Assembly (NCBI GenBank): GCA_950097015.1
Contig: CATNEN010000001.1
Span: forward strand, 16,182,001-16,246,000
Source of the DNA: Macrostomum hystrix
Taxonomy: Eukaryota > Animalia > Platyhelminthes
Reading direction: 5' to 3'
DNA length: 64,000 nucleotides
A program made the position numbers and the translations under genes. Positions 5,066 through 53,174 of the stretch are shown here, piece by piece (the first letter of the stretch is position 1; each line of letters opens with the position of its first letter). The notes below the pieces were generated by a model, which saw nothing but the letters and a program-made list of their open reading frames with translations, did no database searches and had not been told where the DNA came from.

Positions 5066-5094
5066 CCCGGTGTAAAAGTCATCGTCCGCCGGAC
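5066..5094 (+). repeat. Left TIR of copy B
   Basis: cccggtgtaaaagtcatcgtccgccggac, preceded by TA (5064-5065). Confidence 0.9.
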
Positions 5095-5630
5095 GTCTTT
5101 CGGACCCCTACGGTCCCATTTTGGCCTTCGTCAGCTCAGCTAAAAAATAATCGAGTTAGCTGCTGAAAACGTCTTAAGATGTCTTTATTTCAGTTATAAA
5201 TGCATTTAGAAGATGAAAAAATGTGTACTTCGTACAGTCCGATTATAGTCCGAAAATGGCCGACGCGTCGACCGGCTCCAAAATGGTCCGATTTGAGTCC
5301 GAAAAAGGCCGACGAGAAGGACGATGTTCCAAAAAAAATTACTCGTGAGTTAGCTGCTAAAAACGTCTTAAAAGGCCTTGATTTCAGTTCTAAATGCATT
5401 TAAAAGATGAAAAAATGTGTAATTCGTACAGTCCGAAATTAGTCCGCAAAAGGCCGACGCGTCCGCGGTCCGTTTTGAGTCCTCAATAGGGCGACGAGGA
5501 GGACGATGTTCCATAAAAAAATTCTTGAGTTAGCTGCTGAAAACGTCATAAAAGGCTTTATTTTCCGTTACTTATGCATTTAAAAGATGAAAAATTGTGT
5601 AATTCCAACAGTCCGATTCCAGTCCGCAAA
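5095..5630. repeat. Left subterminal repeats (~180-195 bp, 3 copies, rich in gtccg)
   Basis: gagttagctgct(g/a)aaaacgtc at 5153, 5347 and 5528; same array after 54497. Confidence 0.8.
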
Positions 5631-7342
5631 AAGGTCGTTTTTTGATCTACTGTACAGAACCTAACATGCTTGAAATACTACTCGTATTTAAACGTTAGTA
5701 GTGCAGCAAGTTAAATGTTTGGTTTGTATAATCGCAATATTTAGTTTTTAGATATAAATTATTTACTATACATATACTTACTGTTTTACTGATCAGTGAG
5801 AGCTAGGAAATAAAATTTGTGTGCATCAGTGAAACAATTTACGAGTATATAGTGGAATCATCAAAATATTCTGAGCGTGTATACAATTCGATCTTCTGGT
5901 CGGCCATGCATATTCCGGCCGTCTGCAGTAAACCGCTCAATAGCCGTATAAAATGATTGATACTGCGGCAACTGCTTTAATTGCATTACATCTCGAATAG
6001 CTATGTATTTAGGAGTGTATAGAATAGGTAGAAATCGCATAATTGTGATGGTCCGTTTTCCGTCCGATTTGAGTCCGTAAAAAGGCGACGTGAATGTAAA
6101 ATTTAACAAACACATGTATTTTGACCGCAGGCAATAAAAAGTTTTGTCTCAGAAGAAGCCAGTTGCACTAAACTTAATAAGAAGTCAGAATCAATTTTTT
6201 AGTTTCAAATTGCAGCTTAAAAACGAAATAATGGCCTGAGCAAAGTTTTTGAAAGCGCATGCACTGCAAACTTTCACTTTGACCTGACCGGATCCTCAAT
6301 TAATTAGCTATTATGTACGTGAGAATTCTCGATTCGATCAACGAATTCTCAAAAACTGTTCACAGTAAGACACTGAAATTCATTAGACAAGACAAAGTGA
6401 ATATAAACACCGATATCAAACTCGCCATCTACTTTGTGGATTATCTATATAAGTTAATTATTAAGTGAAAGTCTATTTGATCAGCAATGTCAGTGTAGCT
6501 TAGTTAGGATATATTATGAAGCTACAGGAATATTTTTACAAAAAAGAGTGTTATTTTAAAGCGCATAGTGTATATTTACTTTTATTTAGCAAAAAATCCA
6601 TCTTTTTGCAACATTTTATAATGAATTGTACCATGTGAGGCTTAAATGCCTATATACTATATAGCTAGGTTACAATTCCTATTTTCTGCTCTAGATACTT
6701 CAAGTCTAACTTCTGTTTATTCTTGGGCTTTCACAAGTGGCTATTTTATTGAAACAGTGAAAGAAAGAAACTGTTATATAGCTATATGATATGAGAACTA
6801 ATTGTCATGAAAAATGTTTTATTACTTATTAGCTGGTTTAGGTATGTGGCATGCAGTTTTGGTCATGCTTAGGCATTAAGAAGCAAAGATCTGTCAGTCA
6901 ACAGTGAGCTATAGTCAATCATGCCTTTCATAATCTTGGATGGCAGCAGCATTCAGGCTAGCTCTTGTTGGCCAAGCACCAGATACAGTAGAAGTTCCAG
7001 TAAGCTCTCGTACATGCAGATTGAGAATCTTGCCATTCCTTAACCTGTTTGAAAAGGATAAGGTGGTTAAGAGAGTTATTGGTTAGCTTGTTGGTTTTAA
7101 ATGTATTAAACAGAGCAGAAAAATAAATAACATAGCACATATATTATATATAGGCTAAGTAATTAATATAATTTATTATACCTATCCGGCCAATTGTGCA
7201 GTATGGTCAACAGCACAGCCACAGCTATTGTGCAGCATACGCTCGAATCTAAAGGCTGCACATGGCTGTTCAGTCCATGGACTGAGGGATGCCAGACCCA
7301 CCTTAAGTTCAAATAGCTAATATTGGTACCCATTTTACAGCT

Positions 7343-7750
7343 AGCTTGGATAAACAGAGGGGCGGATAGCTCGGTCTGTAAAGGTGTCGGACTCTGGATC
7401 AGATGGTCCTGGGTTCAACTCCCGACCTAGTCTAGAACTATTCGTGCAGCCTTTGGCAAGCTGCTTTGCCCTGATGTGCACACAGTCTACTCAGCTGCAA
7501 ATGAGTACCGATATTTCGTCGGGGAATAATAATTCCGGCTGGCGTGAAATTAAGCAGTTCTGTGCGGCAATTCAGTGGGTTTTGATGCTGCCGATATGTT
7601 TGGAAAAAATAAATTCCATTGCTGACACGCGGCTGTCAACCGGTGTCCGAGAGGGCCGGGGAGTACATTAGGTGTGCAGTCCCCACCTGCTAGTGTGCTT
7701 GACACACAACACCTGCACTGGCCCTTGTGTCTAGTGTCATTATTATTATT
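7343..7750 (+). mobile_element. Full-length tRNA-derived SINE (second family), present only in copy B
   Basis: 11-bp TSD attttacagct (7332-7342 and 7751-7761), A/B boxes (tagctcggtctgt, gggttcaactccc), (tat)n tail; empty site in copies A and C. Confidence 0.9.
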
Positions 7751-9518: not shown

Positions 9519-9524
9519 ATATAA

Positions 9525-9731: not shown

Positions 9732-12700
9732 TAAGGTTTGTTAAACCACGTACTTTTTGCTATTTTATACTAATGGTTCTTCGCAATTCTTGACAGTTTT
9801 TATAACAATTCTTTAAATATGCTTTTAAACATCCTGAAAAAGATATACCCGGTTTTGCAGGTTTTACTTTCCTTTAAAAGCTTCATATTGGTGCTAGGTG
9901 GTAAAACTAAATCTCTTTCTAGCCATTAGCTACACGTCGTTTAACATGCTGCAATTCACACAACAAATGCTAACACAATATTACAATAAAGCAAAATGCA
10001 CTCACCTTTAATATGACAGTAACTAAATGCTATAACGTTAGTCTTTTTGTCGCACTTCGTGTGCAACCATGCAGCTCATTCCATAAGCCAACCCCAAGCA
10101 TTTGCTTAGAGTTGGATGCATGCCCTTGTTGCCATTGGATAAAGCATTTATTAAAGGTGCATGTTTTTACTAAATAATGATATTTGCGCCTTAAAACTCC
10201 TTTTCGCCTTTCAGAGCACAAATATTTATGCAGCGCCACGATGCTCTACGATATATACGATACGATACGTATACGTATACGATACGAATACGATACATAC
10301 GATGCATGCAGCGCCATAACTATAGTTAAAGATTGCGCGGCTCATATAGGATATGCAGCGCCATAGGATTTTCGGATATCTATGCCTTCGTGTCTTTATT
10401 TATTTCACACTTGTTTATTTATTACATGCACTGCATGCATTAAGTATTTATAAATTGCTTTAGCTTTGCACGACAACAAACATATTTATTGAGCTATTGC
10501 ACCTTGCTTTGTGTTTAAGATGCACTTAAGATGCATGCATGCAATTAGCTTCTTAGAATGACTTGATATAATAGCTGGCTATAATCGCATCTGTCCCTTA
10601 AAGGCTTGCTGAAATGTAGCTGAAATTCATAGTTGACTAGGGATCAAATTTCAACCGAAAGCAAAAACTGTATACTGTCAAATTCCAATTTTTGTTTTCC
10701 CCGTTCCAGAAAATCCTGAGACGTGTGTTGCAAGGTGGTCGGCAGAAAATGTACCGACGAGACATCGCTCTTAGCTTTTACCTCGGATGTAAAGGTATGC
10801 AGTTACTTTCTTCTTAAGCAGTTTGAGTTTAAATTCACATTAGGAATTCAAAATGAGATAAATGAATTAATCTAACCCTCTGCAGCATGGGGAATTTCAG
10901 TCAGCGTCGAGCACAAGTTTGCCCAGCGTCCCGGCTAGCTGCATCTGGCCGAGTTTAGCAGGTTAGAGAACGACAGCGACATTCACGAACTCCTTGTCAT
11001 GTCAATAGAGTTCCACGGCTGCACTCGCAACAACGTTAAGTGTGCTTTTTTTTTAGTTTATGAAATAATGTGCAGCAACTATTAGTTTATTTATAGTATA
11101 GCATTTATAAGTACTCGTAGATATCATACTTTTATAGGAAACAGTCGGTCTCAATTACATGTCTTCAAAATCAAGGCTTAATTACAGATGATAAGTCATG
11201 CATGGACAATATGAGAAAACACAAGAAAACAGAACAAAACATGGCCGTAAGAAACAATAGTTTACATGAGTGAAGTAGCGCAACTGACAATCAGACAATC
11301 CGTGATGTAATTCTGAGTCATTGTCTGGATCATGTGATTTCTAGGGCAATGTAGGGATTTCTGAGGTATTAATTAAATTATGGGATTTCTGATTTGGGTG
11401 TCATTTTGTCTCAGTCATTTTTCTAAAAAAAGTTTTACTTTCTCGTGGTCGAAGTGAAATTTGTAAAAGTGCTTGTCTCTTGGGTGGGTCTTGGTGATAA
11501 GCTTGTCCTCATAGTAATGCCTCAGCGCTCGCTTCATCGTTTCAAAGCTCATGTCCCGCCGCTTGTAACTGCCCTACGCCTCTGCTAGGCCGGTTGGGTT
11601 TAGAATTTGGAAAATGCCCTCCAGCTTGTTCTCCCAGCGCAAGCAGGGTGGCGACAGGTCAGCGACAGGCGGAGTTTCGAGTAACTGGTACAGAAACTCC
11701 CACAGCCAAAAATTCCTGTCTGAGGTTGGGCAATGCTAAGTTTTGATAGCTAATTGTTGTTAAATACTAAAGATTCTCAAATCCCAAATTTTCGCAGCTC
11801 AAAAACACTAACCGATGCCAGCACGCTTCTTCCTTGTTCTTTTTATGACGCCTGGCGGCTGCACATGCGTTGGGAGATGCGAAGTGGGCGGATCAAGCGA
11901 ATGAACCCAGCAAAGGGAGCAATCAATCGCCGAAGCATTCAGTCGCTGCTGCGGATGCTGTTGCTGTCCGATGGACCAGATGGACTCCGATGCGCTCATG
12001 GCCCCAGTATCATCTTCGTTGGCAACCGGCTTGTACAAATCGAAGAGGGCAGCGCTTTCGTAAGACTGGAGGTCACTGAATTCGCAGCGCATCACGGCGA
12101 AGTCCAAATTGTCTAGACTGCCCAGGTCATCGACGGGCTGGTAAGAATAAATGGGTTTGCGATTAGCTTGTCTCCCGTGAACAATCAATCTAGACACCGT
12201 GTCCCATAGCTAGACAATCTAGCCACTCTCCGCAATCAAGTGTTGCTATAGTAACTGTCTTTCTAGCTATAAGCTAGCTACCTAGAAAATCTACGAGATT
12301 TTGATATACTCCTAGTAGATACCCACTGTCTCCCATAGAACAACCAGTCACTGTCTCGAATCATATAGATTTACCTTTAGGGATTCAGTTGTATTTCGGC
12401 TATCAAAATTCATTGTCCCAGTGTCTGGCACAGCCTCTAAGAGGAACCAGTTAATATTACTCTTGGCCGCTTCCGCTTTGTTGCTTATAGTTGTTGGAAA
12501 AAATATTGTGGCCGTGTCTCCGCTTTAGACAGCTAGCCAAATCAAGTTACAATGTAAGGTATCTATGCTACCCTAAAGCAAGGACCTCTGAATACAAGCA
12601 TCGATCTATTTATAGATGCTATTTATAGAAGTCCTTGCCCTAAAGAAACGCTTTGTTTGTCTAGTCTAGACTCTAGTGATTCTAGACTCTTATCTCTGCT

Positions 12701-13097
12701 GTGTATTTTACTTCCCCTCTGGATCTCTCAAAATTTAGTTGGGTTAGACCATGAAATTCCCCAGGCTATTGTATTGTCTACCATTACGGTTGTAGACAAT
12801 AATCAGTAAATATATTTCTAATTGCCATTGTCAAAGACAGTTGTTGTTGCTGTTTTGTTGTTGTATTGTCAATGACACTGATCCCTTTACAAATTTGGTA
12901 ATATACGTTTATAATTTTGATTAAGGGCAATCATTCTAGACAGATAAATACTCGTATGTAAATTGGATTTAAAACATTCCGAATTTCTTCCAGATATTCT
13001 CCATGAACACCTGACGCCCGGTACACGGTCAGGTGCGTCGAGAAATGGAAGCTGCGGATGACATTGATATTAGTGTCTATTCTAAGATTGCTCCTCA

Positions 13098-15421
13098 TGA
13101 TATAGCTGCGGGTTTGCAATCCGATGATCTGTCCTCGTGAAGGAAAGGAGTGTGGGGATGGCGATAGAGTCAGAAGTTGTACCGCAAAGTCTCGCGAGTT
13201 GCCGCGGAAAGAGGGATGAAGGGAGAGATGAAGGGAGAGACAGTGGATGCAGGGAGTGGTCCTCTCGGCCTCAGGCTGGCCAGTCACACTCAACCCATAG
13301 GCCACAGGCATGACTGCCGTGCCTACCCCAAGCAGTGCTCGAAACCGGCTAAAAGTCTAAATAGATGTCGGACTACCCGCAAGCGGATAGGACAGGGCTA
13401 GGTAGCCTACTGCCATCAGTAGCATGTTCGTAACTGACTCCTAAACTCGGTAGCAGTGGTCGACTCGGCCTAGGCTCTTGTCTTAGAAATGCGGAAAGGC
13501 TATCGGCAAAGCGGAAAATGATCTAGGGTAGCGCCACCACCCAATGCGCCTACGTTGCCACCGCAGACATTTGGGGACTTGGGTCCCCGGAGCTCGCAGC
13601 TCCTAGTTTGTCACACAGATCTTAGACAAGCCGAAAAATAGAGCCTTCTGTAACTTCCGTTTTAGACTAGGGTGAAAACCCCAGAATGGATCGAGACACG
13701 CCTCACCAGGGGATTCCTGAATTTGCGCTACAGTGGTCTAGAAAGGTGGTACTCAGAACCTGAAAGAGAAACCCATAGCCAGAATCCTACTCATGGGACA
13801 TCAGACACATTCTGTACATTAGGCTGCAGCCTACACATTAGATAACTAGCAATCCGAGTCTGTGTGAGTTGAGGAAAACAGAGGCAGGAGAGGTTAAGCT
13901 GAACACTGGCTGAGTGATTATGCAAGCGTGAGATTAATTGAACATCACTCTCGTTCCCGTGGCCGCAGGTGCGAAAGGGGGACAGCGGGAAAACTCCATT
14001 GGAAAGGGAGCTCGACACGTACCTTGAACCCACCCAAGAGGGAGAAGGAAAACCGGCCAAGGATTCCCCCAACCCCCTGGAAAGGAAAATGCACATGCTA
14101 CCCTCCGCATTTACTTACAAATCCCTAGCTCCATATAACTCTCATGCGCGCTCACAGTTGTCTTCCTGCCGCAGCTTTCAGCTCGGCATCACCAGAGCCC
14201 ACCCCCTAATGAGTTAGCCACTCATGGTAGAGGGCTGTCTAATGAGAAAATAAAGAGGAAATAACAGCATGGCGGAAAAGATTTAAATTGTTATTAAGTT
14301 TGGCCTAATGTTTTAATAATTGGCGAATGAATAGTCCGTATATTAAGCCTCGAATCCTAAGCCCGTGCCCACTAATAGCCGCCTAATTAACAGAAAGCCC
14401 CTTAGGAGCAATAATTGCAAAAACCACTGCGCGGGTTACTTAGCTGAAGTCGCTTCGGCTGCGTGCTGCAATCCCGTTGTTCTCGGGGAAGAGGATGGGG
14501 TAAGACAGCAAAGGCCGGGAAGGGAAAGGTGCGGCGAGTCGGCAGGGGCCAACACGCTTGGAGCTCAAGGCTCAATTTCAACGGCTCACCTAAAGAGGTG
14601 GCTCGCGCTCAGGGGGAATGGGGACAGGCAATGGGCCTGCGCTAACTGTGGAGCTATGAACTCTAGGGTCTATGCCCTAAGTGGGTCCGGAAAGGTGCTC
14701 TGGGTCCGGTGGGAGTCCGGCCCGGCAAAAGTAAGTCCGGCAGGGGAGAAGGGGAAGAGCCGGTGGGAGAAAAAGGTTGTAGAGGGAGCAGCGCCGCGCG
14801 CTTGCTTAAATAGGCCTTGCAGCACGCCAACCCCGACATCCATCAAAGCAACCCACATTCGCGCCCGCCTGTCAACGGGGAATCGAAGCGACGACAGGCC
14901 GCCCCAATTGCCCAATGAACCGGCGGCGGGAAACGACAGGTGCTCATCGAGAGCAGCCATCGGCAGACGGCCAACAATTGTTACTCCGCCGGGACAAAGG
15001 AAGCGCAGGCGCCGACCTGCCTACAGTGACATTTACAAGTATCTACAAGGGAGGAGGTCATAAAGTCGAGCTGGGCTCGAATACTGTAAAGAAGAGGGGA
15101 CATGAAGAATTTAATGATCACTCATAACGCGCGAGTGAGCCCCTATATCTGATCGCGGTTTGGAGGGGAATTATGACCTAAACTAGTTCATACAGTAACA
15201 TTATGGCCGCGATCAGTCATTCCTACGGGGAGTCTAGGCAACTCCGGAGAGAGAGGATTCGACAGCTACTTGATTCACCGCCGCCTCAAACCCGGCCCTA
15301 AGATTAATGATCTTGTTTTGTGGCCAGCTGCTATGTGGGTCGCAATTATTAGTTACTTAAAAATTTGAAAAATTATGCTGGCTCACATTCCCGCTCGATT
15401 CCCGCAGCACACTCCACATCA
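13098..15421 (-). repeat. 3' LTR (2324 bp)
   Basis: Near-identical to 21707-24034 (a few substitutions, one 3-bp and one 1-bp indel). Confidence 0.95.
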
Positions 15422-15440
15422 CTCCACCTTCGCTCACTTT
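15422..15440 (-). other. Polypurine tract
   Basis: Minus strand aaagtgagcgaaggtggag abuts the 3' LTR. Confidence 0.75.
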
Positions 15441-16169
15441 CACGTAAGACACTTACGTGCCTACTGACAGTAGTAGCGGGGTGTCTCGAGAATCGAGGGG
15501 ATAAATAAAAATTACCTACAACATACTGTAGAGAACCCTAGGAAGAATTCCGCTAGAGAAGAAATCCTAATGCGTACGTACGTACGGCTATAAATAGATT
15601 GGTGCGAGAGTATAAACGGTCGGCGCCCCTAGCGACTAAGGGATAGAGTCTTGAGGGGAGGTGGGTGCGCATTCCGGTCGCGGCGATGTTGTTCTCGTTG
15701 CCCAGGGGGTGCCTCGTCCCGGCTCGCCTTCTTCTCCAGGTGGCTGCAGCTCGTCCCAGTTCTCCCTGCCCGGCTTGGTCTCGGTTGCGCAATCCTGGGA
15801 GGCCCCGGCCGTCTTCTCCTTGAGTCCGAGGGGTCCGGCCGTGCTCTGCCCAGGTGGGTCCAGGTTGTTCAGCCCGTTTGCGCCCTTGCCGATCCTGCTG
15901 CCGGGCCTTGGTAGCCTCTGATTCGCCGCGCGCCCGGGTGTTTACAGCTGGCCGTGCCCGAAAATGTTCGCCGGGCTGGTTGCCGAGCCGTTGCGCGCGG
16001 TCCAATTGGCGCTGCAGCTGGTCGCAGCCGGAGAAACCCGCTGCTCAGGCCGCTCAGTTACTCTGTTGCCGGCCGCGGTATCTCCTCACCGAAAAGATCA
16101 AGGCCCCACTAACTAAACTACAACTATGGCCCCCTTACTCATGGAATTTCCCACAATCCTTCCCGAGCC

Positions 16170-16225
16170 TTCCTATTGGCTGGCGCCCCGGCCACCAAAA
16201 CCCCTAAACAAACTATTATAAAGAA
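16170..16225 (+). promoter_or_regulatory. Putative promoter of the antisense gene
   Basis: attgg (reverse CCAAT) near 16176 and tattataaag near 16214, about 80 bp upstream of ATG 16295. Confidence 0.5.
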
Positions 16226-16294
16226 CCACTTGATGCTCCATTAACTTCAGGCCTGTTATTTTTTGTAAAATCTCTGTTCATTTACTAATCGAAA

Positions 16295-17005
16295 ATGCGC
16301 CCAACTAACGCTGGCATTGTGCCTCTTTACGAAGCTGCTGACATGGCCCTGCCGCCGCCACCTGGAGAAGAGAGGTGAGTTACATTGCTTCCACTCGGCC
16401 TCCCAAGGCCGGTTATTGAGGGGCGATAATGAAATGGTTGGATAATAATTAGACTAGCTAGGATAATTATAGCAGTTCCCGGCACCCCCAACCCGATTCT
16501 TATCTATGACTGATCTTAACCCGAACCCAGATCCCTCAGCCCGCTAAGTTGAGAAATCCCAGTGAAACCCTAAATTAGCATTAGATCGAGTTTAATTTGT
16601 ATAAAAATTTCGTGAATTTGCTATCACCGTGATTGATTACCACCGTCCTGCCCTCCTACTTCCAGAGATGTCGTACCGCAGCCACCTACACGGCTTACCT
16701 TCGTCATTAGTAAGTCACCATGAATTGATATTTAACGCTTCATTCTATATTAGCCACCATTTGATCTGATTTCCGGGTCAAGCATCACCGAAATTCCACG
16801 CTAACCCTCAGCCGTAGTTGCTTAACTACTTCCTTCTTAATAAAAAAAATCCATCCCATCTCCCGCAGACTTTGACGTGGCGCCCAGCCGTCTCGCGGCT
16901 GGTGAGCTAAGCGAGGTCCTGGTGGGCCCCATGGGCTGGGCCGCGGCGGCCGGCCTGTTAATGGCCGCAGGAATGATCATAATGGCTCGCCTTCGCCGGC
17001 GCTAA
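16295..17005 (+). CDS. Predicted 3-exon 86-aa protein with C-terminal hydrophobic helix and polybasic tail; join(16295-16374,16666-16709,16869-17005)
   Basis: Donors GTGAGT and GTAAGT, pyrimidine-rich acceptors ttccag and ccgcag, phases 2 and 1 join in frame: MRPTNAGIVPLYEAADMALPPPPGEERDVVPQPPTRLTFVINFDVAPSRLAAGELSEVLVGPMGWAAAAGLLMAAGMIIMARLRRR. Confidence 0.75.
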
Positions 17006-18717: not shown

Positions 18718-18846
18718 GTCGACAATTTTTGTTAAAATGAACTGACTGCGTCCCTTCTAAACTTCCCGGCTCCTCCACTAACCTCCAGTCTAAATATCCA
18801 CAAGGGGGAGAGGGGGGGAAGAAAAGGGGAGGGGGGTTCCTCAGCC

Positions 18847-21705: not shown

Positions 21706-21706
21706 T

Positions 21707-41904: not shown

Positions 41905-43350
41905 CGTAGGGTGTCCCAGAAATAGCGGGAAAAATCGATGTACAGGCAAACTGGTGAAACATAGTTTATTGAAACTCACGTCACTGATAAATAAACATTC
42001 AGCAGTTCTAACGCTTTTTAAATTAAGTAAATATGTCAATTCATTAAAAAGTTATGGCTAAAATTAAAACAAGGGGTAAGGGGTAGAGTTACACCAAGTC
42101 AAGGCCAGCGGAATCGGTCACGCAGCATCGCCATCGCCGTCGACTGACGACTTTTCGACGAAGTCCCCCTTAGCTCGCAGCACTTAGTCCATCGCGTGAG
42201 AAGCGCATTGATGGCATCTGCATAAGCTCGACGCGGAATTTCGTGCAGCAGAACCAGCCTGACTTCACCTTCCAAGTTGTCGCGATGGTCAAAGATGCGC
42301 CCCCGCAGGTGCTTCTTTAACTGAGGGAAAATTGCGTAGTCGCAAGGAGCCAAGTCTGGTGAGTAGGGCGGGTGCGCAAGCAGATCAAAATTGAGTTCGT
42401 TGATACGATCAAGCGTTTTCTTGGCCGTGTGAGGTCGAGCGTTGTCGTGCAACAGGAGGTGAGGCTTCATCGCAGTCCTGCGCTTGTTGCGGATGTCCGA
42501 TTTCAGCTTAGTCAGCGTCTCCGTGTACCGGTCCGAGTTAACCGTGCTGTTAGGCTCAAGGAAGTCGATGGTCAGGGGACCTTCTTGATCGAAGAAAAGG
42601 GTCAGCATGATCTTCTTGCAGTGCTGGTCTCGCTTCGCCTTCACAGGTGGATATGAACCCTTCAACGCCCACACCTTGCTTTCCTGCTTGGTCTCAGGGT
42701 CAAAGTGCGGTATCCAGGTTTCATCGCCGGTCACCAGATAGGGTGGAAACTCTCCCATCCACCAGCATCACGCACCAGCTCAAGATTCTCCCTGCAGGAC
42801 TTCATTCTTACAGTTTTCATTTCTTCTGTCAACAAACGGGGCACCCATCTCGCCGTCAGTTTCACCATACCAAGATCCACAGACAAGATCCGATGAATTG
42901 AAGTTTTTGGACTTCCCAGTCGATCCGCCAACTCTCTTGCAGTCAAACGGGGATTTGCCTGTACGATTTCCTTCACCATTTGAATCAGTGCCTTTGTTGA
43001 TGGAGAGATCGGACGGCCACGGTTGGCTGTGTCATCGGCAACGTCTGTTCGCCCATGACTGAACTCTTCAAGCCAGCGATAGACAGCACTCTTCGAGATG
43101 GCACTCACTCCGTAGATTTCAGTCAGCTGGCTTACAATTTCACTGCCTCGCTTGCCCAATTTCCATTGGGAGTACACGAACTGGCGCTGACCTTCTTTGG
43201 ACGAAACGTTAAACATTGAACGATTGAACAAGGGAAAATGAAAAAAATCCAAACTCAACAGCGGCGTCTTGTCGAGCACAAAATGTCGATATTCGCGATG
43301 TCGATCGTGCTTGCTGTCGTTAGTGCCACGGGTATTTCTTGCGTCAGCTT
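41905..43350 (-). mobile_element. mariner (DD34D) element with one TIR only
   Basis: TA followed by cgtagggtgtcccagaaa at 41903; no matching inverted end found; right boundary approximate. Confidence 0.8.
42099..43216 (-). pseudogene. mariner transposase, frameshifted near 42740 and probably near 42165
   Basis: WVPRLL, VTGDETW, HDNARPH and YSPDLAPCD motifs; 34 residues between the second and third Asp. Confidence 0.93.
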
Positions 43351-44384
43351 CTGCATATTTTGATTCTGGTGCTCACGCTTCTCTGCTCGTCTGTTGCCTT
43401 TTTCTGCTTCTGTTCACTGATGCTTCTGCTCATTTTCTTCTGTCGCAAAAATTTTGTCTAAGGACAAAATTTTGTAGTTTTTGTGAGGTATAAAAATTAT
43501 TCGTCTTCCTTTCTATTATTTTCCTACATGCTTTAGAAACGCGCTTCGTTATTTACGTAGAGTATAGTAAGTATAGTACACAATGATATTTCTTGCTATG
43601 TATTCAAATTAGTATTTTTTACCCCATGTCTATGCTGCCTGTTGTGCGTTGTGTTACTGCAAAGGCATTTTATACTTTTGATGTGCTGTAGACTGCTGAG
43701 CAGCCTCCAGGCAATCTGAGAGTCAGGCTGTTCTAGGTCTGTGGGAGGGCTAGGGTTGGTAGTTAGTGTTCCCCGTGCACTGTCACTTCCGCTCGCCACC
43801 CCCCCTTCCGCTGTCTCTCTCTTTCCAGCTCTGTCTGCGCACTGAGTCATATTGCACACCATGGTGCAATCGCTTAAGTTCGGAAGAAGACTGGCATAAC
43901 ATCGCTCAAATGCTCCTACTATGAGTAGAGCACAGTCCGACGAATCCTTGAGAGGGTGTTAGTGCCATGGTAAACACAACTTCTGTACGAATATGCACGT
44001 TTCTTGTCTCCAGTCTTCATGCCGTTTAGCGACACTTCAGCTTTGCTTCGGTTCGCTTTCTTCTTGCATCTTATTGGCAAACAAACCGTATACTGCGTTT
44101 AGAAGCAGAGTATACCGGGTGTTTCAGAGCAAGGTCAGATAAGTTAATTATAGGCTAACTTAGAGCAATCCGAGGAAACTAGGTAATCTAGCCTGACTAC
44201 CGGATTGTTCCTCTGCCAGGAAGCATCTGCGTTGAGGCCGGTATAAAAATCTCTCTCGGAATCTAGTTCCTGTCTTGGTTATTTTACCAATTGTGTGTGC
44301 CACGCTACCACAGGTACAACATTGGTGGCAAAGCGGTGTGATTCGAGTTAGCCTTTTTACTCATTCACTGCGGAAACGAACGCC

Positions 44385-45674
44385 ATGTCCCAAGAGGAAT
44401 TAGATTCAGAGAGAGAAGAGAGGCAGCAGGTAGCCCGGAGCAAGGAGTCTCGCGGTGGCTGTGCGCTGCAGGAAGCTGCTGGCAGGAGTCGGTGGAACGG
44501 CCGCGGCAACGGCTGTGTCGGCGACGGCGAGGACGGCGAGAGCGACTTCGGCGACGACGACCAGTCTGGCGGCGAGGACGACGACCGGGGCGCAGCGGCA
44601 GCGGCAGCAAGGCGACGACGACCGAGGCTGGACGACAGGGCGACGGCTGACCTGGTGTACCGGATGCTCAACCTGATGGAGAAGCAGGTGGAACAACAAC
44701 AAGGTAGGACGGCGAAGATTGCCAAGTTTTCTCGGGGTCAGGACGTGCATCTGTGGGTGGACGCGTTTGAAGCGTATTGCGCCCGGGCTGCGATTCGCAG
44801 TTCGGAGACACGCAAGGCCCTTCTACTCGACCACCTCGATGTACAGTGCCTGAATGCCGTCCTCAGGATGAAGCTGCCCGAAGAGCTCACGTATGCCCAG
44901 TTCAAGGAGCGTATTGTGGAGCGATTCGCGCCGCTGAGTAGCCCTGAGGAGTACCGAGACGAGTTCCGCAATCGCTATCAGAAGAAAGCGGAAACGCTTG
45001 ATGACTATGCTGATGCGTTGCAGGGACTCGGTGAGCAGGCCTACACCAACCTTCGCCAGAGAGACCTGGACTATGAGTTGGTCGACCAGTTTATTAAGGG
45101 AGTTCGGACTTCGGTTGAGAACCGCAAGCACCTGCTGCGGACTCGCCCTAGAACACTCCTGGAAGCTAGGCGAGAGTTGAAGCGCCTAGAGGTGGTCGAC
45201 GAGGCAGTCCAGAGGGCGAAGGATGGGCCGGCTCGGATGGTGCACGGCGAGGATGGGGACCTGAATGCGCGGCCGCCACCGCAAGGTGTTACCGCTGCGC
45301 TGAAGGGACTCGAATCGCTGATGACCAAGATGGTCGAGGTCCAGGGTCAGCAGCTGCAGCATCAGCAGAAGATGCAGGAGATGCTGGTCCAGGCGCTCAG
45401 CCGACCACAAGGAGCCGTGCAGCAGGAAGGACCGGCGCCGCCAAGAGGGGCATGCTTTGGTTGCGGGAAGTTCGGACACCTGAGGCGTGATTGCCCGACG
45501 AGGCCACCCAAGCCGCGTTACGAGCACCACACTCGGGGGTACCCGAGAGAGCAACGGCAAGAGCCCAGGCAGCAGTCCGAGCTGCAGGCCCAAGGCACTC
45601 AGACGTCGGGAAACGAGACGGCGAGGAGCACGGACGGCAGTGCCCCTCGCAGTCCAGTTCCTGGACGGGCCTGA
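44385..45674 (+). CDS. gag: Gag, 429 aa
   Basis: YQKKAETLDDYADAL major-homology-like region and CFGCGKFGHLRRDC knuckle. Confidence 0.93.
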   Translation: MSQEELDSEREERQQVARSKESRGGCALQEAAGRSRWNGRGNGCVGDGEDGESDFGDDDQSGGEDDDRGAAAAAARRRRPRLDDRATADLVYRMLNLMEKQVEQQQGRTAKIAKFSRGQDVHLWVDAFEAYCARAAIRSSETRKALLLDHLDVQCLNAVLRMKLPEELTYAQFKERIVERFAPLSSPEEYRDEFRNRYQKKAETLDDYADALQGLGEQAYTNLRQRDLDYELVDQFIKGVRTSVENRKHLLRTRPRTLLEARRELKRLEVVDEAVQRAKDGPARMVHGEDGDLNARPPPQGVTAALKGLESLMTKMVEVQGQQLQHQQKMQEMLVQALSRPQGAVQQEGPAPPRGACFGCGKFGHLRRDCPTRPPKPRYEHHTRGYPREQRQEPRQQSELQAQGTQTSGNETARSTDGSAPRSPVPGRA

Positions 45675-48600
45675 GGGAGACTGAGGAGTCAGCTGGAGGA
45701 GAGGGTAGGGGCTCTCCTAGCACCAGCTTCCTCGAGCGTTGGTATGCCTCCAGCGCTGACCCCTATGTGACGGCGATGGTTTCCAAGAAGACGGTGCCTT
45801 TTCTCCTAGACTCAGGGAGCAGGCGCTGTCTGATTGGAAGTGAGACGTGGGCATCTCTGCGGCATGTAGTGCCGCACGCTGTGCTGACAGGAGAGAGTGC
45901 CCTGTGCAACTTTGATGGTTCTCGATTGCCGGTTTTAGGGCGAGTCGCCTTTGAGGTCAGGCTCGGCGACTACGCTGTAGACGTCGAGTTCTGCGTGACG
46001 AAGGGCGAGCACGAGAACATCCTAGGAATTGATTTCATGCGCCAGCACACCCAGAAGATTGACTTTCCGAAGGGAATGCTGACCATGAAGTCAGGAACCA
46101 GAGTGCCGCTGAGGTTCACGAGGCGAGAGGCGAGGGCCAGTCGGGTTTACTCACTCGAGCAGACCACTGTGCCAGCGCGCTCTTCGATGCTCGTAGCGGT
46201 GAAGCTAGCGGGTGGCCGGACTGACTGTCATGGCACGCCGCTGCTTGTCGAGTCCTTGAGGTCAGGACTGAAGCCAGGGGCGTCTCAGGTCGAGATGGCC
46301 CCGACATTGCTGACGATGGCTGACGGGACAGGGTGTGTTGAAGTCATCAATACCTCTTGCTTCCCGGCGGTCATTCGAAGCAATGGTCTTGTAGGGCTAG
46401 CGAGGCCACTGAAGGCCGACGAACTCGAATATCTACCAGAGCTAGAGGAGACGCCGGTCAGGCAGGTTCAGGCAGAAGGGCTGGAGAGCGATGAGGCATG
46501 GCTAGAGGAGGTGGAGATTTGTGAGAGGTTGACCGAGGAGCAGAGGCATCGGGTTAAGATGTTGAGAGAGTGCCGCGAGGCATTCGCAATGCATCCCCTG
46601 GACCATGGTGTCACTGACTTAGTCACTCATGAGATCATTGTGACAGATCCCACTCCAGTTCGCATTCCACCGAGGAGGATCCCGCCTCACTTGATGGAAC
46701 AGTTGGACAAGATGCTGGATGAGATGTTGGCGAAAGGCATCATCAAGCCGACATTCTCCAGTTACAACACGCCTCTCCTGATTGTCCCTAAGAAAGACAA
46801 GACTATCAGGATTGTCTTAGACTATCGCGAGTTGAATAGCCGCTGCCTGAAGCACGTCTATCCGCTGCCAGACATACAGCAGACCTTTGAGCATTTGAGA
46901 GGGGCGCAGTACTATTCCGCCCTCGATCTTGCACAAGGTTTCTGGCAGATCCCGCTGAGAGAGCAGGATAGACACCTGACCGCGTTCTCGGTTCACCACA
47001 GAGGTCAGTTTGAGTTTACTGTGTTGCCGATGGGCATGACGGATTCGGCAGGGTCCTTTCAGCGCTGTATCAACAAGCTGCTGGAGGGGCTGACGCCAAA
47101 GGTAGCGTTGGGGTATATCGATGATATACTCGTCCACTCGCCTACCTTTGACGACCATTTGGAGCATCTGAGGATGATGCTGACTCGAATCCGTGAAGCC
47201 CAGTTCAAGCTGAAGCCGAAGAAGTGCCAGCTGTTCAAGAGGGAGCTGCACTACTTAGGCCATGTGGTGACACCAGAAGGCATCCTGACGAACGAGGATA
47301 AGATCGCCGAGCTCAGAGGCTGGCCGACACCTCGAAGCGCCAAAGAATTGCGCAGCTTCTTGGGGTTGGCACAGTACTACAAGAAGTTCGTCCGCAATTA
47401 CTCAGGGATTGCAGCACCATTGCACGAGCTCACTAAGCGGGACGTTACCAGCTTGAAGGGTCTGTGGAAGACAGAGCATGAGAGAGCCTTTCAGGGATTG
47501 AAGGATGCGTTGTGCTCAACGGAGGTACTGGCGTACCCGGAGTACACCTCTGACCCGAAGGTGACTTTCGTCCTGGACACAGATGCCTCTGATGACCGCA
47601 TAGGGGCTTGTTTGAATCAGCTGCAGTCTGATGGAGTAGAAAGGCCTGTTGGCTACTACAGCCGGAAGCTGCGAGGGCCGGAGACCCGCTACACTACGAC
47701 CCGCAAAGAATTGCTGGCAGTCGTAGATGCGATGCGGTATTTCCGGTACTTCCTGGTTGGCAAGAAGTTTGTTGTCCGGTCCGATCACAAGGCCCTGTTG
47801 TGGCTCATGCATCAGACCGAGGCGACAGGCATCCTAGGCCGTTGGGTTGAGAGAATGAGTGAGTTTGACTTCACCATTGTTCATCGTCCTGGAAAGTCTC
47901 ACCAAAATGCTGACTCGATGTCGAGAAAGCCGGATAACCCGGTGAATTGTTCCTTTGGGGTGGTGACACCCCACAACCAGTTCGGTGCGAGTGCTTGCAC
48001 CCGCCAAGTTTCGAGTCAGCTGGAGGAGGGACAGGAAAGGGACAATAAACAGGTTGAAGTCAACGAAGCCGCAGAGCCACTGCGAGCTGTGAAACCCAAA
48101 GCTCAAGATGTCGTTGACGGCCGACCAGGATGGGAAGCAGCTGTGTCTGAAGGACTGGTGGAAGAGCCGGTCCTGGAGCCTGTCGAGGTGCGCCAAGAAA
48201 AGGCGGTGCTGCAAGGGTGTCAGGAAGACACGACCGCAGGCCAGCCTGTGAGGCGGGAAGCACCTGTCAACGGGGCCCCGCAGTCAGCTCGTTGCAGCCA
48301 GTTCTGCCTGCAGACTGTGGATGCCGCCGTGCAGACGGTAGCTACTGAAGGTAGCTGGAGCCAGGGAGCCACAAGGGAGGAGCACTGGGTGCGGGGCTGT
48401 GATGCCAAGGCACAGGTGCAAACTCAGGTGGTGGCGGAAGGCTCAGAGGTGAAGGAGAAGGTGCCCGCTCGTTGCAGCCAGTCCTGCCTGCAGGCGCCAG
48501 ATCCGGAACCTCTGGTGTGTCCGGAGACAGAGGAGGAAGTGTCCGCTCGTTGCAGCCAGTCCTGCCTGCAGACACCGAATCCTGCTGTTGAGGAGTTCTC

Positions 48601-50722
48601 GGAAACAGGGGAGAAGTCGCTGGCTCGTTGCAGCCAGTCCTGCCTGCGAGCGACTGATCCCGCTGTGTCAAGGTCCTCGGGTCAGGAGGATCAGCAGTTA
48701 GCTCGTTGCAGCCAGTCCTGCCTGCCGACTGTTGGTCTCTCCGTGGGACAGGGAGCAGAGGTGGAGGGGAGTTGTCAGACTCGTTGCGACCAGTCTCGCC
48801 TGTCAAGGACACCCCCTGCTGCCAGGGCTCCTGGGTCCAAGGACAAGGAGGACAAGGACAATGGAGAGCTGCCTCAGGTAAGAGCAGTGGTGACAGAGTT
48901 CCTGAGGGTGCCGGTTAGCCAGGTCGAGTTGCTAGAAGCTCAGCACCAAGACCCGGCAATCCGATACCTGACGGAACTGAAACTGTCAGGAAGGCAAAAG
49001 CCCAGGTTCGATCAGCGACTCCAGATGCCGAAAGAGGTCAGAGACCTCCTGGGTGCATTTGAGGAGCTGGAGGTGCGCGACGGGTTGCTCGTCATAGACT
49101 TTGATGACAACCGGCCGCCGCGACCAGTGCTACCGAAAGCGTTAGACTCGCGTGTCTTTGAGGCCTTGCATGACTCACCCCTGGCGGGTCATCTCGGCCA
49201 GTCCAAGACGGTGCAGAGAGTGAGAGACAGGTTCTGGAGACCCGGTCTCTGGTCGGAGGCGACGGGGTACGTGGCACGTTGCAGGACATGCCTGGAGAGC
49301 AAGTCAAGGCGGAAGGAGATAGTCCCACCGCAGAGCTTTCCAGTGTGTGAGGTTTTGGGAAGGGTGCACGCCGACGTAATCGGGCCTTTGTCTCAACCAA
49401 GTGCCCGAGGACATCGGTACATCCTCACCCTGTGTGATGCAACATCGAAGTACCCGTTTGCCTATCCGATGCGAAACCAGAAAACGAAGACCGTGATCAA
49501 ACTGCTGCTGGATAGGTTCATTCCCGAGTACGGTGCACCAGCCTGGTTGCACACGGACCAGGGGACGAACTTTATGAGTGCAGAGTTTGAGGACTTTTGT
49601 AAGCTGTATGGCATCCGTCATACGCACACGTGTCCCTATAACCCGGCCAGCAATGGACAGGTCGAAAATCTGAATCGCCAGATCAAGTCAGTGCTCACGT
49701 GTTTGTTGGAGAAAGAGCATAGGGATTGGGACCTGATGCTGCCCGCGTGCTTAATCGCGTTGCGCACCAGTGTCCACCCTGTGACCGGGTACACGCCGTA
49801 CTTCCTGGTCTTCGGACGGGAGTACCGGCTGCCCGTCGACAACACGTTGACAGCACTGGCTGAGTACGCAGACCTGCCGGATTATCTCCGACATTTCCAG
49901 GAGCGCATAGACCAGGCGGTCAATTGTGCCCGGGACAAGCTCGAGAGGTATCAGGTGCTGCGAGAGGAGCACTACCAAGAGAGACCGCAGGCGAGACCAC
50001 TCCGCCCGGGCCAGCTGGTCTTACTTAACAACCCGGTGATCGAATCCGGAGAAATCAGCAAGTTCCATCGGCCTAGACAATCGGTCTACGTGGTGCTCGA
50101 GTGCAAGGGCGAGACGGTATACAAGATCAGGCGACACGGCAACACCAGGAAGGCCAGGAAGCAGGTGCTGGTAGTCCACCGGCGCAACCTGCTCCCGGTA
50201 CCGGCCTCAATGTGCGACAGGACAGAGGAGGCGAGCCCGGCACGGTGGAAGCTCGGAAGGCCACCCAAGGGTGGCACTCCAGCAGCTGACGCGGCCGGTG
50301 AGCCTACCGACAGCGATGACGACGACGACGACGACGACGAGATCGGCCTGTGGAGCGCTCGAAGGTGGCACCTGCGACCACGAGCTGTCTCCAGGTCGAA
50401 TCTCCACGACCCGGCCGGCACGGAGATCTGCAACGGAGAAGAGGCGGGGGAAGCGTGCGGTGATGTGGTTGTCCTGCCGTCGGACAGTCCGTTGCCCTCT
50501 CCAACCCTGCCCCCCATCCCATCCTCTATGCACGGGGAGATTGCAGAAGGTGCTAGGGCCAGAGAAGAAGGTGAGGCTGCTCAGATAGGTGACGCTAGGG
50601 ATCAGGAGCCGCAGCAAAGGCCGCAAAGAGTTAGGCGAGAGCCGGAAAGGCTGCAGGTCGATCCTAGGAGAAAATCCTATTTCATCAGAATGATGCGCCG
50701 CATACCTAAAATGTTTCAGTGA
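45608..50722 (+). CDS. pol: Pol (PR-RT-RNaseH-repeat linker-IN), read by -1 frameshift
   Basis: G GGA AAC at 45608-45614 in phase; LDSGS, YIDD, DTDAS, HHCC and DDE motifs; no stops. Confidence 0.95.
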   Translation, partial: GKRDGEEHGRQCPSQSSSWTGLRETEESAGGEGRGSPSTSFLERWYASSADPYVTAMVSKKTVPFLLDSGSRRCLIGSETWASLRHVVPHAVLTGESALCNFDGSRLPVLGRVAFEVRLGDYAVDVEFCVTKGEHENILGIDFMRQHTQKIDFPKGMLTMKSGTRVPLRFTRREARASRVYSLEQTTVPARSSMLVAVKLAGGRTDCHGTPLLVESLRSGLKPGASQVEMAPTLLTMADGTGCVEVINTSCFPAVIRSNGLVGLARPLKADELEYLPELEETPVRQVQAEGLESDEAWLEEVEICERLTEEQRHRVKMLRECREAFAMHPLDHGVTDLVTHEIIVTDPTPVRIPPRRIPPHLMEQLDKMLDEMLAKGIIKPTFSSYNTPLLIVPKKDKTIRIVLDYRELNSRCLKHVYPLPDIQQTFEHLRGAQYYSALDLAQGFWQIPLREQDRHLTAFSVHHRGQFEFTVLPMGMTDSAGSFQRCINKLLEGLTPKVALGYIDDILVHSPTFDDHLEHLRMMLTRIREAQFKLKPKKCQLFKRELHYLGHVVTPEGILTNEDKIAELRGWPTPRSAKELRSFLGLAQYYKKFVRNYSGIAAPLHELTKRDVTSLKGLWKTEHERAFQGLKDALCSTEVLAYPEYTSDPKVTFVLDTDASDDRIGACLNQLQSDGVERPVGYYSRKLRGPETRYTTTRKELLAVVDAMRYFRYFLVGKKFVVRSDHKALLWLMHQTEATGILGRWVERMSEFDFTIVHRPGKSHQNADSMSRKPDNPVNCSFGVVTPHNQFGASACTRQVSSQLEEGQERDNKQVEVNEAAEPLRAVKPKAQDVVDGRPGWEAAVSEGLVEEPVLEPVEVRQEKAVLQGCQEDTTAGQPVRREAPVNGAPQSARCSQFCLQTVDAAVQTVATEGSWSQGATREEHWVRGCDAKAQVQTQVVAEGSEVKEKVPARCSQSCLQAPDPEPLVCPETEEEVSARCSQSCLQTPNPAVEEFSETGEKSLARCSQSCLRATDPAVSRSSGQEDQQLARCSQSCLPTVGLSVGQGAEVEGSCQTRCDQSRLSRTPPAARAPGSKDKEDKDNGELPQVRAVVTEFLRVPVSQVELLEAQHQDPAIRYLTELKLSGRQKPRFDQRLQMPKEVRDLLGAFEELEVRDGLLVIDFDDNRPPRPVLPKALDSRVFEALHDSPLAGHLGQSKTVQRVRDRFWRPGLWSEATGYVARCRTCLESKSRRKEIVPPQSFPVCEVLGRVHADVIGPLSQPSARGHRYILTLCDATSKYPFAYPMRNQKTKTVIKLLLDRFIPEYGAPAWLHTDQGTNFMSAEFEDFCKLYGIRHTHTCPYNPASNGQVENLNRQIKSVLTCLLEKEHRDWDLMLPACLIALRTSVHPVTGYTPYFLVFGREYRLPVDNTLTALAEYADLPDYLRHFQERIDQAVNCARDKLERYQVLREEHYQERPQARPLRPGQLVLLNNPVIESGEISKFHRPRQSVYVVLECKGETVYKIRRHGNTRKARKQVLVVHRRNLLPVPASMCDRTEEASPARWKLGRPPKGGTPAADAAGEPTDSDDDDDDDDEIGLWSARRWHLRPRAVSRSNLHDPAGTEICNGEEAGEACGDVVVLPSDSPLPSPTLPPIPSSMHGEIAEGARAREEGEAAQIGDARDQEPQQRPQRVRREPERLQVDPRRKSYFIRMMRRIPKMFQ
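48287..48805 (+). repeat. 78-bp (26-aa) in-frame repeat, ARCSQSCL core, between RNaseH and integrase
   Basis: Cores at 48287, 48467, 48545, 48623, 48701 and a degenerate one at 48779. Confidence 0.9.
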
Positions 50723-50796
50723 TTCCTATCCTCCGAATCAGGCCGAGGAAGATCCCTTGGAGAACAAGAAAAATAAAATAAAATAAAGGAAAAGGA

Positions 50797-51738
50797 ATGG
50801 AGAATAATGAAAATCTCGGACCGGAAGGAAGAGTGGTCACGAGGCCAAAGTTGCCGGCTCCCACACGTCGGGTGCAGGAAGCATCCAAGAGCCCCCTGAA
50901 GGAGCGTCAGGAGCCAGTGAGTAAACGACTAGCACTTTTAAGGTGTCAGTTTGGGAACAGCGCGCCCTTTCCCTTGGGTCAGCGCTCACCGAACTGGCAT
51001 CAGCATCTTATGCCCGCCCTCCCTCGATGTTCACAGAGGAAGCGAATTGCGTCAGAGGCCCCCCAATCGGTCCCTAGGGCCAAGAGGGATCAGGCCAGCA
51101 TGGCGATCGCCGAGGCTCAGGACGCAGCCTGTCAGGCGGCGCGTCCACGGCTGAGTTCTAGCAGCAGCGGGTCGTTGGACGTGCAGGTGGATATTAATGA
51201 GGATCTGTGGGCCCAACTGCAATTTGGGATGCCCTCATCGGAGGATGAAGGCATGCTAGATGATGAGGAGAGCGAGCATGAAGACGTGCCGGAAGGACCA
51301 GCAGCACCACCTGTGTTCCATCCTCCTGCACCGTCGAGGTCATCCTCGGATGACAGCGTCGAGGAGTTGGAAGGGGCTGCTGCGAGGCCCAGAAGACGCA
51401 GAGGCGGTGCCCAGCGACGCCGGCAGCGCCGAGCCCAATGGGGCCACAGAGCGCCAGCACGTGAAATGGCCATTGCGCAGGTGGCCGAGTCGCTAGCACG
51501 CGCTGCCCGGATGGAGAGGGAAGAAGGCTGGCCTATAGAAGTACACCAGGCGTTCGCCGCAGAAGATCGGGCCACCCGACGTGAAATGGCCCAGGAAGCT
51601 GCGGCGCGGGCCGAGATAATGGTGGGCGGCCTAGCTCCAGCGCCATACCAGATCAGAGCCAGGTACGGCCAGGTGGTCGTGGAGCTTGTTGAAGAGTGGT
51701 GGCTGCCGGAGGCATTGGCACGTATGGCTCCCAGGTGA
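50797..51738 (+). CDS. ORF3 of unknown function (313 aa; acidic and Arg-rich; not env-like)
   Basis: Open ATG ORF between pol and the 3' LTR; no signal peptide or transmembrane stretch visible. Confidence 0.7.
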   Translation: MENNENLGPEGRVVTRPKLPAPTRRVQEASKSPLKERQEPVSKRLALLRCQFGNSAPFPLGQRSPNWHQHLMPALPRCSQRKRIASEAPQSVPRAKRDQASMAIAEAQDAACQAARPRLSSSSSGSLDVQVDINEDLWAQLQFGMPSSEDEGMLDDEESEHEDVPEGPAAPPVFHPPAPSRSSSDDSVEELEGAAARPRRRRGGAQRRRQRRAQWGHRAPAREMAIAQVAESLARAARMEREEGWPIEVHQAFAAEDRATRREMAQEAAARAEIMVGGLAPAPYQIRARYGQVVVELVEEWWLPEALARMAPR

Positions 51739-53145
51739 AGAAAGAGACAGTTGGTGCGCCACACTCCGCTATCGTGTTTTTATTCAGAGAGGTCGTGTGA
51801 CCCGGAAGGGAGTTTTCCCTGTTTATCGACCCCTGTAATTCTCTTTTTGTACTGTCTGCTCGTATGTGTTCGTACTGTTTTTATTCAGTTTGTTAATCCT
51901 AGCGAGTACGGATGATTTTTGTATTCTTTGTAGTCGATTGTAACGTGAAATTTTATTGATGATGGATTCAAGGAAATAAAAGGTGCTTACCTGAGTTTTG
52001 TTTTAAGTGCGGCTGACGGCCAGCCGGTGTTGACCGTCATCCTTTAGCTGGAGGAGAATGATGTGCTGTAGACTGCTGAGCAGCCTCCAGGCAATCTGAG
52101 AGTCAGGCTGTTCTAGGTCTGTGGGAGGGCTAGGGTTGGTAGTTAGTGTTCCCCGTGCACTGTCACTTCCGCTCGCCACCCCCCTTCCGCTGTCTCTCTC
52201 TTTCCAGCTCTGTCTGCGCACTGAGTCATATTGCACACCATGGTGCAATCGCTTAAGTTCGGAAGAAGACTGGCATAACATCGCTCAAATGCTCCTACTA
52301 TGAGTAGAGCACAGTCCGACGAATCCTTGAGAGGGTGTTAGTGCCATGGTAAACACAACTTCTGTACGAATATGCACGTTTCTTGTCTCCAGTCTTCATG
52401 CCGTTTAGCGACACTTCAGCTTTGCTTCGGTTCGCTTTCTTCTTGCATCTTATTGGCAAACAAACCGTATACTGCGTTTAGAAGCAGAGTATACCGGGTG
52501 TTTCAGAGCAAGGTCAGATAAGTTAATTATAGGCTAACTTAGAGCAATCCGAGGAAACTAGGTAATCTAGCCTGACTACCGGATTGTTCCTCTGCCAGGA
52601 AGCATCTGCGTTGAGGCCGGTATAAAAATCTCTCTCGGAATCTAGTTCCTGTCTTGGTTATTTTACCAATTGTGTGTGCCACGCTACCACAGGTACAACA
52701 CTTTGCTTTCTGTATTTTGTATGTAATTTTTTAATAATCCTAATTTTTAGCAAGTTCTGTCTTGCTTACTTCTATTCCAAGTTGTTCTTCTTTTATAACT
52801 TGCAAATGCTTGTTTAATTGTCTCTTTCTGTTATATTGTATCTGTGAAATAAAGAAATGAGTAACGTATTTGCAAATTAAAATTAATAAGAATATACGAT
52901 AACATTCATTTTTTCAATAAGAAAATTAAAATATTTTTGTTCATGTTTAATAAGTTATTTAAAGGAATACGAGAGAATAATTAATACGATTTTTCATTCA
53001 GAGCTACACTACTAATAGTAGTATTCACAACATTTTACAATGGTCCGAAATTGGTCCTCCGTCGGCCGACGGCGGACGTCCGCCGGACTAAATTTCTGCG
53101 TACAATAGACCAAAAGTCAAAGTCCGGCGGACCCAAAAAATCATT

Positions 53146-53174
53146 GTCCGCCGGACGATGTTTTTTACACCGGG
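53146..53174 (-). repeat. Right TIR of copy B, with gtccg/cggac subterminal motifs from ~53040
   Basis: Reverse complement cccggtgtaaaaaacatcgtccggcggac; followed by TA. Confidence 0.9.

Follow-up and report, generated by a model that had tools for sequence, protein, structure and literature searches.

Animal transposons of the TRC/CACTA type have terminal inverted repeats (TIRs) that begin with CCC, and are flanked by a target-site duplication (TSD) of 2 bp (PMC1636069, PMC4298943). Here we describe E2, a probable large relative of these elements in the flatworm Macrostomum hystrix, which lies in a 64,000-nucleotide stretch hereafter called the window (assembly GCA_950097015.1, contig CATNEN010000001.1, positions 16,182,001 to 16,246,000, forward strand). 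SmTRC1, the Tribolium and Aedes TRCs and Spongebob/EnSpm-4N1_HM share with E2 the CCC TIRs, the 2-bp TSD and a spliced transposase gene, and SmTRC1 resembles it further in inserting into other repeats, where three of its copies were found (PMC1636069, PMC4298943). However, these animal TRCs measure ~4.7-9.2 kb, with no cargo described in the portions of the two papers drawn on here, whereas E2 amounts to ~22 kb and carries a SET gene, an ETS domain and two orphan open reading frames (ORFs).

Parallels for individual features of E2 come from outside the animals. EnSpm families of Chondrus crispus, at 16-20 kb with 4-5 ORFs, match it in superfamily, size and gene number (cited in PMC6431247), although Chondrus is a red alga and its extra ORFs are without stated nature in the part of that report used here. 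A chromatin enzyme beside a DDE transposase within TIRs, as in E2, characterizes the SET-bearing HarbingerS and MuDR elements of Phytophthora and the TET/JBP-bearing EnSpm, ESTA and Plavaka elements of fungi, of which ESTA also makes TA TSDs (PMC12730594). In the sections of that paper relied on here, SET cargo is reported only for oomycete Harbinger and MuDR, whereas E2 appears to be a CMC element with a SETD8-like gene. The Pack-CACTA elements of Arabidopsis show close insertions in direct orientation, one-ended deletions and captured gene fragments, as in the E2 cluster, but they are non-autonomous plant elements with a 3-bp TSD, whereas E2 is large and has a nearly intact transposase (PMC6379663, in part). 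No animal CACTA element with SET or ETS cargo was found in the literature searched; supplements and Repbase Reports lay outside its scope and may describe similar elements.

Judged from its sequence, E2 appears to be a real, unusually large and cargo-bearing variant of a known superfamily within a nested cluster, in which habitual self-insertion is not established. It is probably a TIR-bounded animal CACTA/EnSpm (TRC) transposon of ~22 kb with a transposase, a SETD8-like gene and a broken ETS domain, and the nest probably arose by local hops into a hotspot that the element also carries, rather than by strict self-targeting.

Ends and transposase of E2

We use E2 for the element copy at 5066-53174, and E1 and E3 for the partial copies to its left and right in the window. 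The features that delimit and would mobilize E2 are as follows (window coordinates, with strand where one applies).

5064..5065: left TSD, TA, from flank and empty-site comparison
5066..5094 (+): left TIR of E2, beginning CCC, 26/29 to the right TIR
5142..5631 (+): left subterminal repeats, ~180-bp period, GTCCG-rich
31165..33919 (-): CMC/EnSpm-type transposase, exons 33919 (or 33820)-33812, 33636-32723 and 32127-31165, from homology and splice sites
53020..53160: right subterminal palindromes, fold z -4.56, with 0/200 shuffles equally stable
53146..53174 (-): right TIR of E2, from the TIR match
53175..53176: right TSD, TA

The two TIRs are identical at 26 of 29 positions, the runner-up for the reverse complement in the whole window reaching 19/29, and TA borders E2 at both ends. 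When E2 and one TA are removed, the host sequence aligns without a gap to intact sites at 12913 (in E2), 61729 (in E3) and 54393, which shows that the 2-bp duplication is real; it is read from the single insertion of E2, the far end of E3 lying beyond the window. The motif GTCCG occurs 11 times in 5066-5700, against 11 times in 18.1 kb of core. The span of 48,109 bp falls to 23,848 bp when three long terminal repeat (LTR) elements (13098-24034, 34892-39193 and 43679-52700) are subtracted, and to ~22 kb once a mariner is also removed, a figure that includes a 2.8-kb minisatellite and takes the mariner without its ends, which were not found in three scans. A TIR scan found no internal TIR inside E2. 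The ends differ from those of strict-sense plant CACTA elements (CACTA/G ends, 3-bp TSD) in beginning CCC and in having a 2-bp TSD; piggyBac and Tc1/mariner were rejected as the outer element, given flanks other than TTAA and a CMC-type transposase. The first-pass annotation of this DNA had proposed these TIRs with TA on each side, the rejoining of the flanks to an uninterrupted internal site, a remainder of ~22 kb after removal of three LTR elements and the mariner, and a CMC/CACTA-type identity from C-initial TIRs, subterminal repeats and a 2-bp TSD; all four are upheld, the last by the ends together with the transposase.

The two long transposase exons (33636-32723 and 32127-31165) are joined in frame by GT-AG sites, with a SINE-like insertion within intron 2, and translation from the second ATG gives 628 aa. 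Eight homologues of 609-707 aa were found, with E down to 3e-60. All nine aligned transposase sequences share D178, D253, C272xxC275, H168xxxH172 and E192 without exception, and we take D178, D253 and E192 to be the catalytic triad. The portion of PMC12730594 cited here gives acidic residues together with C(2)C and H(3)H motifs as a trait of CMCT clade transposases. The exons have no match to Pfam Transposase_21 at E<=0.1 in either exon, nor do four of the homologues; there is a weak DUF4218 match (2e-4) in exon 3, and DUF1258 is found in two homologues. No relatives of the transposase occur in the viral contigs searched. Eighty related transposase loci were collected from metagenomes (median ~4.7 kb; 26-39% identity), in which a relaxed TIR scan gave one CCC pair against none in shuffled sequence, and CAC and TGT counts at about the shuffled level. 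In one locus (L002:126-8769) the related transposase belongs to an element of 8.6 kb whose TIR begins with CCC (17/18) and whose 2-bp flanks differ.

Three features of the transposase count against the explanation favoured below. A stop lies at codon 14 after the first ATG in the short first exon. The protein has EPMH where the motif matches at related loci are DYMH (72/76) or EYMH (3/76). The top six structural matches of a model of the last exon are RAGL, RAG1 and Transib, but with Z-scores of 7.5-8.6 in the tool's middling range (rmsd 3.6-6.0 over 138-176 aligned residues), and since a Foldseek search of the model against the PDB gave nothing at E<=0.001, support for a RAG1/Transib-like fold is moderate. 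CCC ends and a 2-bp TSD are of the animal TRC/CACTA type, so the encoded transposase is likely, though not proven, to be the cognate one of E2. On its ends, TSD and transposase motifs, we file E2 as a putative animal TRC/EnSpm element.

The target of E2 and a probable shared insertion hotspot

Both host flanks of E2 are related to a 1.3-kb segment inside the element, which we call U. The copies of U and of the element, with an intron discussed below, are arranged as follows.

1..4647 (+): E1, young copy, differing from E2 by 1.6-7.4% substitutions, broken off within the ETS exon and joined there to old U
4647..5065 (+): old U, left half, the target of E2, from alignment to E2's U
12141..12993 (+): GT-AG intron of a putative transcript antisense to ETS (one contig), with canonical donor and acceptor
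12332..24636 (+): E2's own U, in two parts (12332-13097 and 24039-24636) with LTR element 1 between them, containing the putative hotspot 12913-13097
53177..53966 (+): old U, right half, holding a 29/32-nt match to transposase DNA 31636-31667
54005..54467 (+): second old U, in tandem, the target of E3, from alignment to other U copies
54468..61793 (+): E3, left part, 0.8-8.1% substitutions against E2, followed by an LTR from 61794

The host copy of U that flanks E2 is only 82.2% identical (585/712) to E2's own U, and therefore E2 did not land in a copy of itself of the same age; the E1 DNA adjoining the junction is, by comparison, 98% identical to E2 (1.6% substitutions). Old U copies and E2's U share 78-82% identity, the second host copy standing at 78-80% to the others, and the two host copies, separated by 38 bp, are ~80% alike. 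(The U alignment carries a one-base artefact at the site of LTR element 1, as that element ends at 24034.) Old U may be left over from an earlier subfamily, or it may be sequence once captured by the element. A tandem duplication would leave the same local pattern as a separate mobile U element with defined ends. Thus the earlier description of E2 as inserted into a copy of itself holds in that the flank is related to internal DNA, but what E2 entered is an old paralogue of a single internal segment of 1.3 kb. The third copy that had been placed ~1.3 kb further on in the same host is confirmed as E3, which starts at 54468 with a TIR that matches the left TIR of E2 at 28/29 positions, although it is preceded by GT and not TA. 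E3 was inserted 120 bp further along U than E2, all three copies are in direct orientation, and E2 and E3 are collinear over their left 7.3 kb. The LTR at the E3 edge (from 61794) is 83% identical to that of LTR element 1.

In E2 coordinates, four insertions fall within 185 bp of U: E2 at 12913, an LTR in E3 at 12977, E3 at 13034 and LTR element 1 at 13097. Since LTR elements occupy the same 185 bp as E2 and E3, U looks like an insertion hotspot shared by the E2-type element and LTR elements. Any four of seven uniform points on 22 kb would fall within 185 bp with P ~9e-5, a value that disregards the selection of the window, the SINEs and the fact that E1 and E3 are in view by their left parts alone. 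Successive points lie 64, 57 and 63 bp from one another, which may be chance. The stretch 12994-13097 plus 100 bp past the LTR is 93-94% conserved between E2 and host U, against 66-88% elsewhere in U. No RNA-gene target was found for the hotspot: Rfam gave no match at its gathering threshold in the whole window, three matches below threshold in 53170-54470 (E 0.058-2.4) were judged to be chance, and ARAGORN found no tRNA. The conserved part of U folds with z -2.5 in E2 and -0.7 in the host copy; as these differ, we claim no conserved structure.

Contigs of sequencing runs were compared with the window using the best four of eight runs (X1-X4), which belong to a single study and represent no more than three samples, and of which X1 may be the source sample. 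In X3, a contig (450 nt, depth 56), whose matches we assigned to one contig on their equal length and depth, joins the equivalents of 12140 and 12994. The acceptor of the intron so skipped is conserved in each of the three U copies extending across the site, and X3 cover falls near an AATAAA at ~53440. Together these suggest a spliced plus-strand transcript antisense to ETS, with the hotspot as its last exon; as X3 is listed, by a guess, as DNA, the contig is possibly a retrocopy. A 30-40-nt piece of transposase coding sequence (29/32) lies inside U, at 53364-53395 and 24050-24089 against 31636-31673, and sits in the putative last exon, antisense to the transposase mRNA.

Cargo genes and nested elements

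Besides the transposase, E2 holds four candidate cargo features.

11418..11735 (-): ETS-domain exon, Pfam Ets 8.8e-18 when the stop is rendered as X
28892..29837 (-): SETD8/PR-Set7-like gene, exons 29837-29727 and 29437-28892, from open frame and Pfam SET
34317..34694 (+): ORF-A, 125 aa, single exon
40212..41816 (+): ORF-B, exons 40212-40556, 41198-41414 and 41709-41816, compatible phases

The SETD8-like gene lies downstream of the transposase, matches Pfam SET at 9.8e-13, and its start was not found. The predicted protein has the SET core motifs GxG, NHS and ELxxDY followed by a C-terminal PWL tail. By bit score KMT2D (50.3) ranks above SETD8 (45.1), but the SETD8 alignment covers 14-141, through the C-terminal tail, whereas that of KMT2 reaches only 125. 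Among library proteins the nearest reaches 43% identity, and the sole named close match is SETD8. At an active-site position the product has Phe where all six close relatives fetched have Tyr, and a Tyr-to-Phe change at the SET active site can lower activity. For this reason, it is uncertain whether the product would be an active methyltransferase towards H4K20.

The ETS domain, whose closest solved structure is ETV6 (3.3e-14), had escaped the gene list of the first-pass annotation. A nonsense codon at 11576-11574 is present in both E2 and E3 (copy at 60234-60551, minus strand), the exon is truncated in E1, and the reading frame is not intact in any of the three; an ORF upstream of the exon (12137-11811) has no in-frame splice to it at obvious sites. 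On this evidence, the ETS domain is a captured transcription-factor cargo that reads as a pseudogene. Together with the introns and the SINE-like repeats, it speaks for an animal host. ORF-A has no homologue that we could find and no Pfam or NCBIfam match. ORF-B, of which the last exon was not found, has no homologue among longer proteins and no significant Pfam or NCBIfam match; its best Atlas match (0.88) is a lead only, and its single-sequence model has a pLDDT of 54. A further 73 short ORFs gave no credible Pfam match. The count of at least four spliced genes made at first pass therefore stands in part: the transposase and SET gene are supported by homology and splice sites, and ORF-B has three exons without a homologue, but ETS is broken and ORF-A has a single exon.

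The remaining features of E2 are insertions and repeats.

13098..24034: LTR element 1, LTRs 99.7% identical, exact 4-bp TSD
25118..27931: 18-bp minisatellite, 156 copies, 2.8 kb
33944..34283: duplicated block between transposase and ORF-A, 72% to 39829-40145 upstream of ORF-B
34892..39193 (-): LTR element 2, Ty3/gypsy-type, LTRs 99.1% identical
42102..43222 (-): mariner transposase, frameshifted, from homology
43679..52700 (+): LTR element 3, Ty3/gypsy-type, LTRs 99.8% identical, exact 4-bp TSD

LTR element 1 has 2.3-kb LTRs, and its internal ORFs scanned (15556-20654) gave only a weak protease match and no reverse transcriptase or integrase, so it is possibly non-autonomous. LTR element 3 has an uninterrupted 1743-codon pol frame at 45491-50719 (+), and its LTRs differ by one gap, which marks it as very young. 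A SINE-like repeat of ~200-230 bp occurs at 7168-7342, 7853-8061, 8360-8561, 24921-25118, 32158-32375 and 57433-57664; it is very deep in all four runs and has no tRNA or Rfam match. The minisatellite starts directly after one of these copies (24921-25118). A second old duplication joins blocks 28317-28736 and 30519-30800, and the old duplications overall are 71-77% identical. Lying beside the genes of E2, the duplicated blocks may possibly be reused promoter and 3' modules.

Origin of the nest

In the explanation that we favour, the encoded transposase would bind the GTCCG-rich subterminal repeats and move the whole unit by cut-and-paste. Young copies would have landed twice, by local hopping, in an old tandem pair of U, at a hotspot that may be an accessible, conserved stretch also used by LTR integrases. 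The right part of E1 may have been lost by one-sided deletion or recombination, for which a Pack-CACTA-like one-ended deletion would account, and young LTR elements would later have inflated E2 to 48 kb. The SETD8-like product, if active, would alter chromatin at the element.

The left junction of the nest, already proposed at first pass, was recovered in contigs of three of the four runs: the joint from U into the left TIR of E2 is present in X1 (depth 155), X2 (6.7) and X4 (7.4), from two samples. X1 contigs are 873-1133 deep along the left 6 kb of the element, against 714 at the LTR-free U site and 77 for a host-only contig; this roughly suggests a dozen haploid copies, although contig depth is not copy number. 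Sequence words of the SET-transposase block are present at 76% in X2 and 55% in X4, both of them small contig sets, yet 53640-54119 is uncovered in both, which hints that the block is multi-copy. Other contig results weigh on the opposite side. At the right end (52860-53159), X2 and X4 give no cover and X1 a reduced summed depth. Among the contig matches listed, neither the right junction nor that of E3 is bridged, and none of the contigs listed spans the whole element. The window, moreover, shows just a single instance of the right end and of the gene block.

That a region with three near-identical copies in one window, and with unbridged right and E3 junctions, is an assembly artefact of repeat-rich DNA is nonetheless highly improbable. 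The exact 2-bp TSD with its empty site and the exact 4-bp TSDs of LTR elements 1 and 3 argue against it, as does the left junction in contigs of two samples, and the two host U copies, at only 80% alike, are not a collapsed or duplicated read path. We give more weight to the possibility, still an unlikely one, that the core is a patchwork assembled between the ends of two copies, as a hybrid or macro-transposon, with SET, ETS and U as passengers of one lineage and a gene block that is not constant. Capture of this kind is described for Pack-CACTA (PMC6379663, in the portion cited). It would fit the patchy divergence among E1, E2 and E3 (0.8-8%), the old internal duplications (71-77%) upstream and downstream of the genes, the thinner cover of the right end than of the left, and the U core (53181-53340), which turns up in X2 and X4 on depth-19 contigs whose flanks the window lacks. 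Homologues of SET, ETS, ORF-A and ORF-B were found at 0/80 of the related transposase loci, though with a median of ~4.7 kb those contigs are short, and with 26-39% identity they are distant. The TSD with its empty site, however, implies that the whole span arrived as one unit or was rearranged only later; the collinear left 7.3 kb of E2 and E3, the apparently multi-copy gene block and the lack of an internal TIR in our scan also speak for a single mobile unit.

Dedicated self-targeting, in which the transposase would prefer U within its own family and habitually build nested arrays, strikes us as distinctly unlikely. Both left ends in the window (2/2) do lie in U copies, in direct orientation and 120 bp apart in U coordinates, and the joint between U and the TIR recurs in two samples, its depth in X2 and X4 being ~1/3 of that of the element body. 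Yet only one joint into the left TIR is found among the eight listed, at 155 against ~1000 for the body in X1. In X3, the right TIR is followed by non-U DNA in three contigs, of which one is 89% identical to the right end of E2, and one left-end contig has 57 extra letters and no joint to U. E2 and E3 lie at different positions and next to different dinucleotides, LTR elements share the 185 bp, and the targets are old paralogues. The first-pass proposal that the element builds nested arrays by self-insertion is thus retained for the nested arrangement, whereas the targeting itself is not established. A more elaborate version would make E2 a 22-kb gene platform with a working SETD8-like methyltransferase, a spliced ETS-antisense RNA bearing a short stretch complementary to the transposase mRNA, and a conserved landing pad of ~200 bp that draws its own copies and one LTR family, so that arrays form by design; we regard this as quite improbable.

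Under our preferred reading, of a large TRC element hopping locally into a shared hotspot, the significance of the locus depends on its cargo. Were the gene block a one-off passenger, this would be a commonplace case of elements nested within a cluster of repeats. Should the SETD8-like gene be active, and constantly linked to these ends, E2 would be an animal cut-and-paste element with its own histone-modifying enzyme. The 185-bp hotspot, apparently common to a DDE transposase and LTR integrases, may offer a small, defined target for studies of insertion-site choice.

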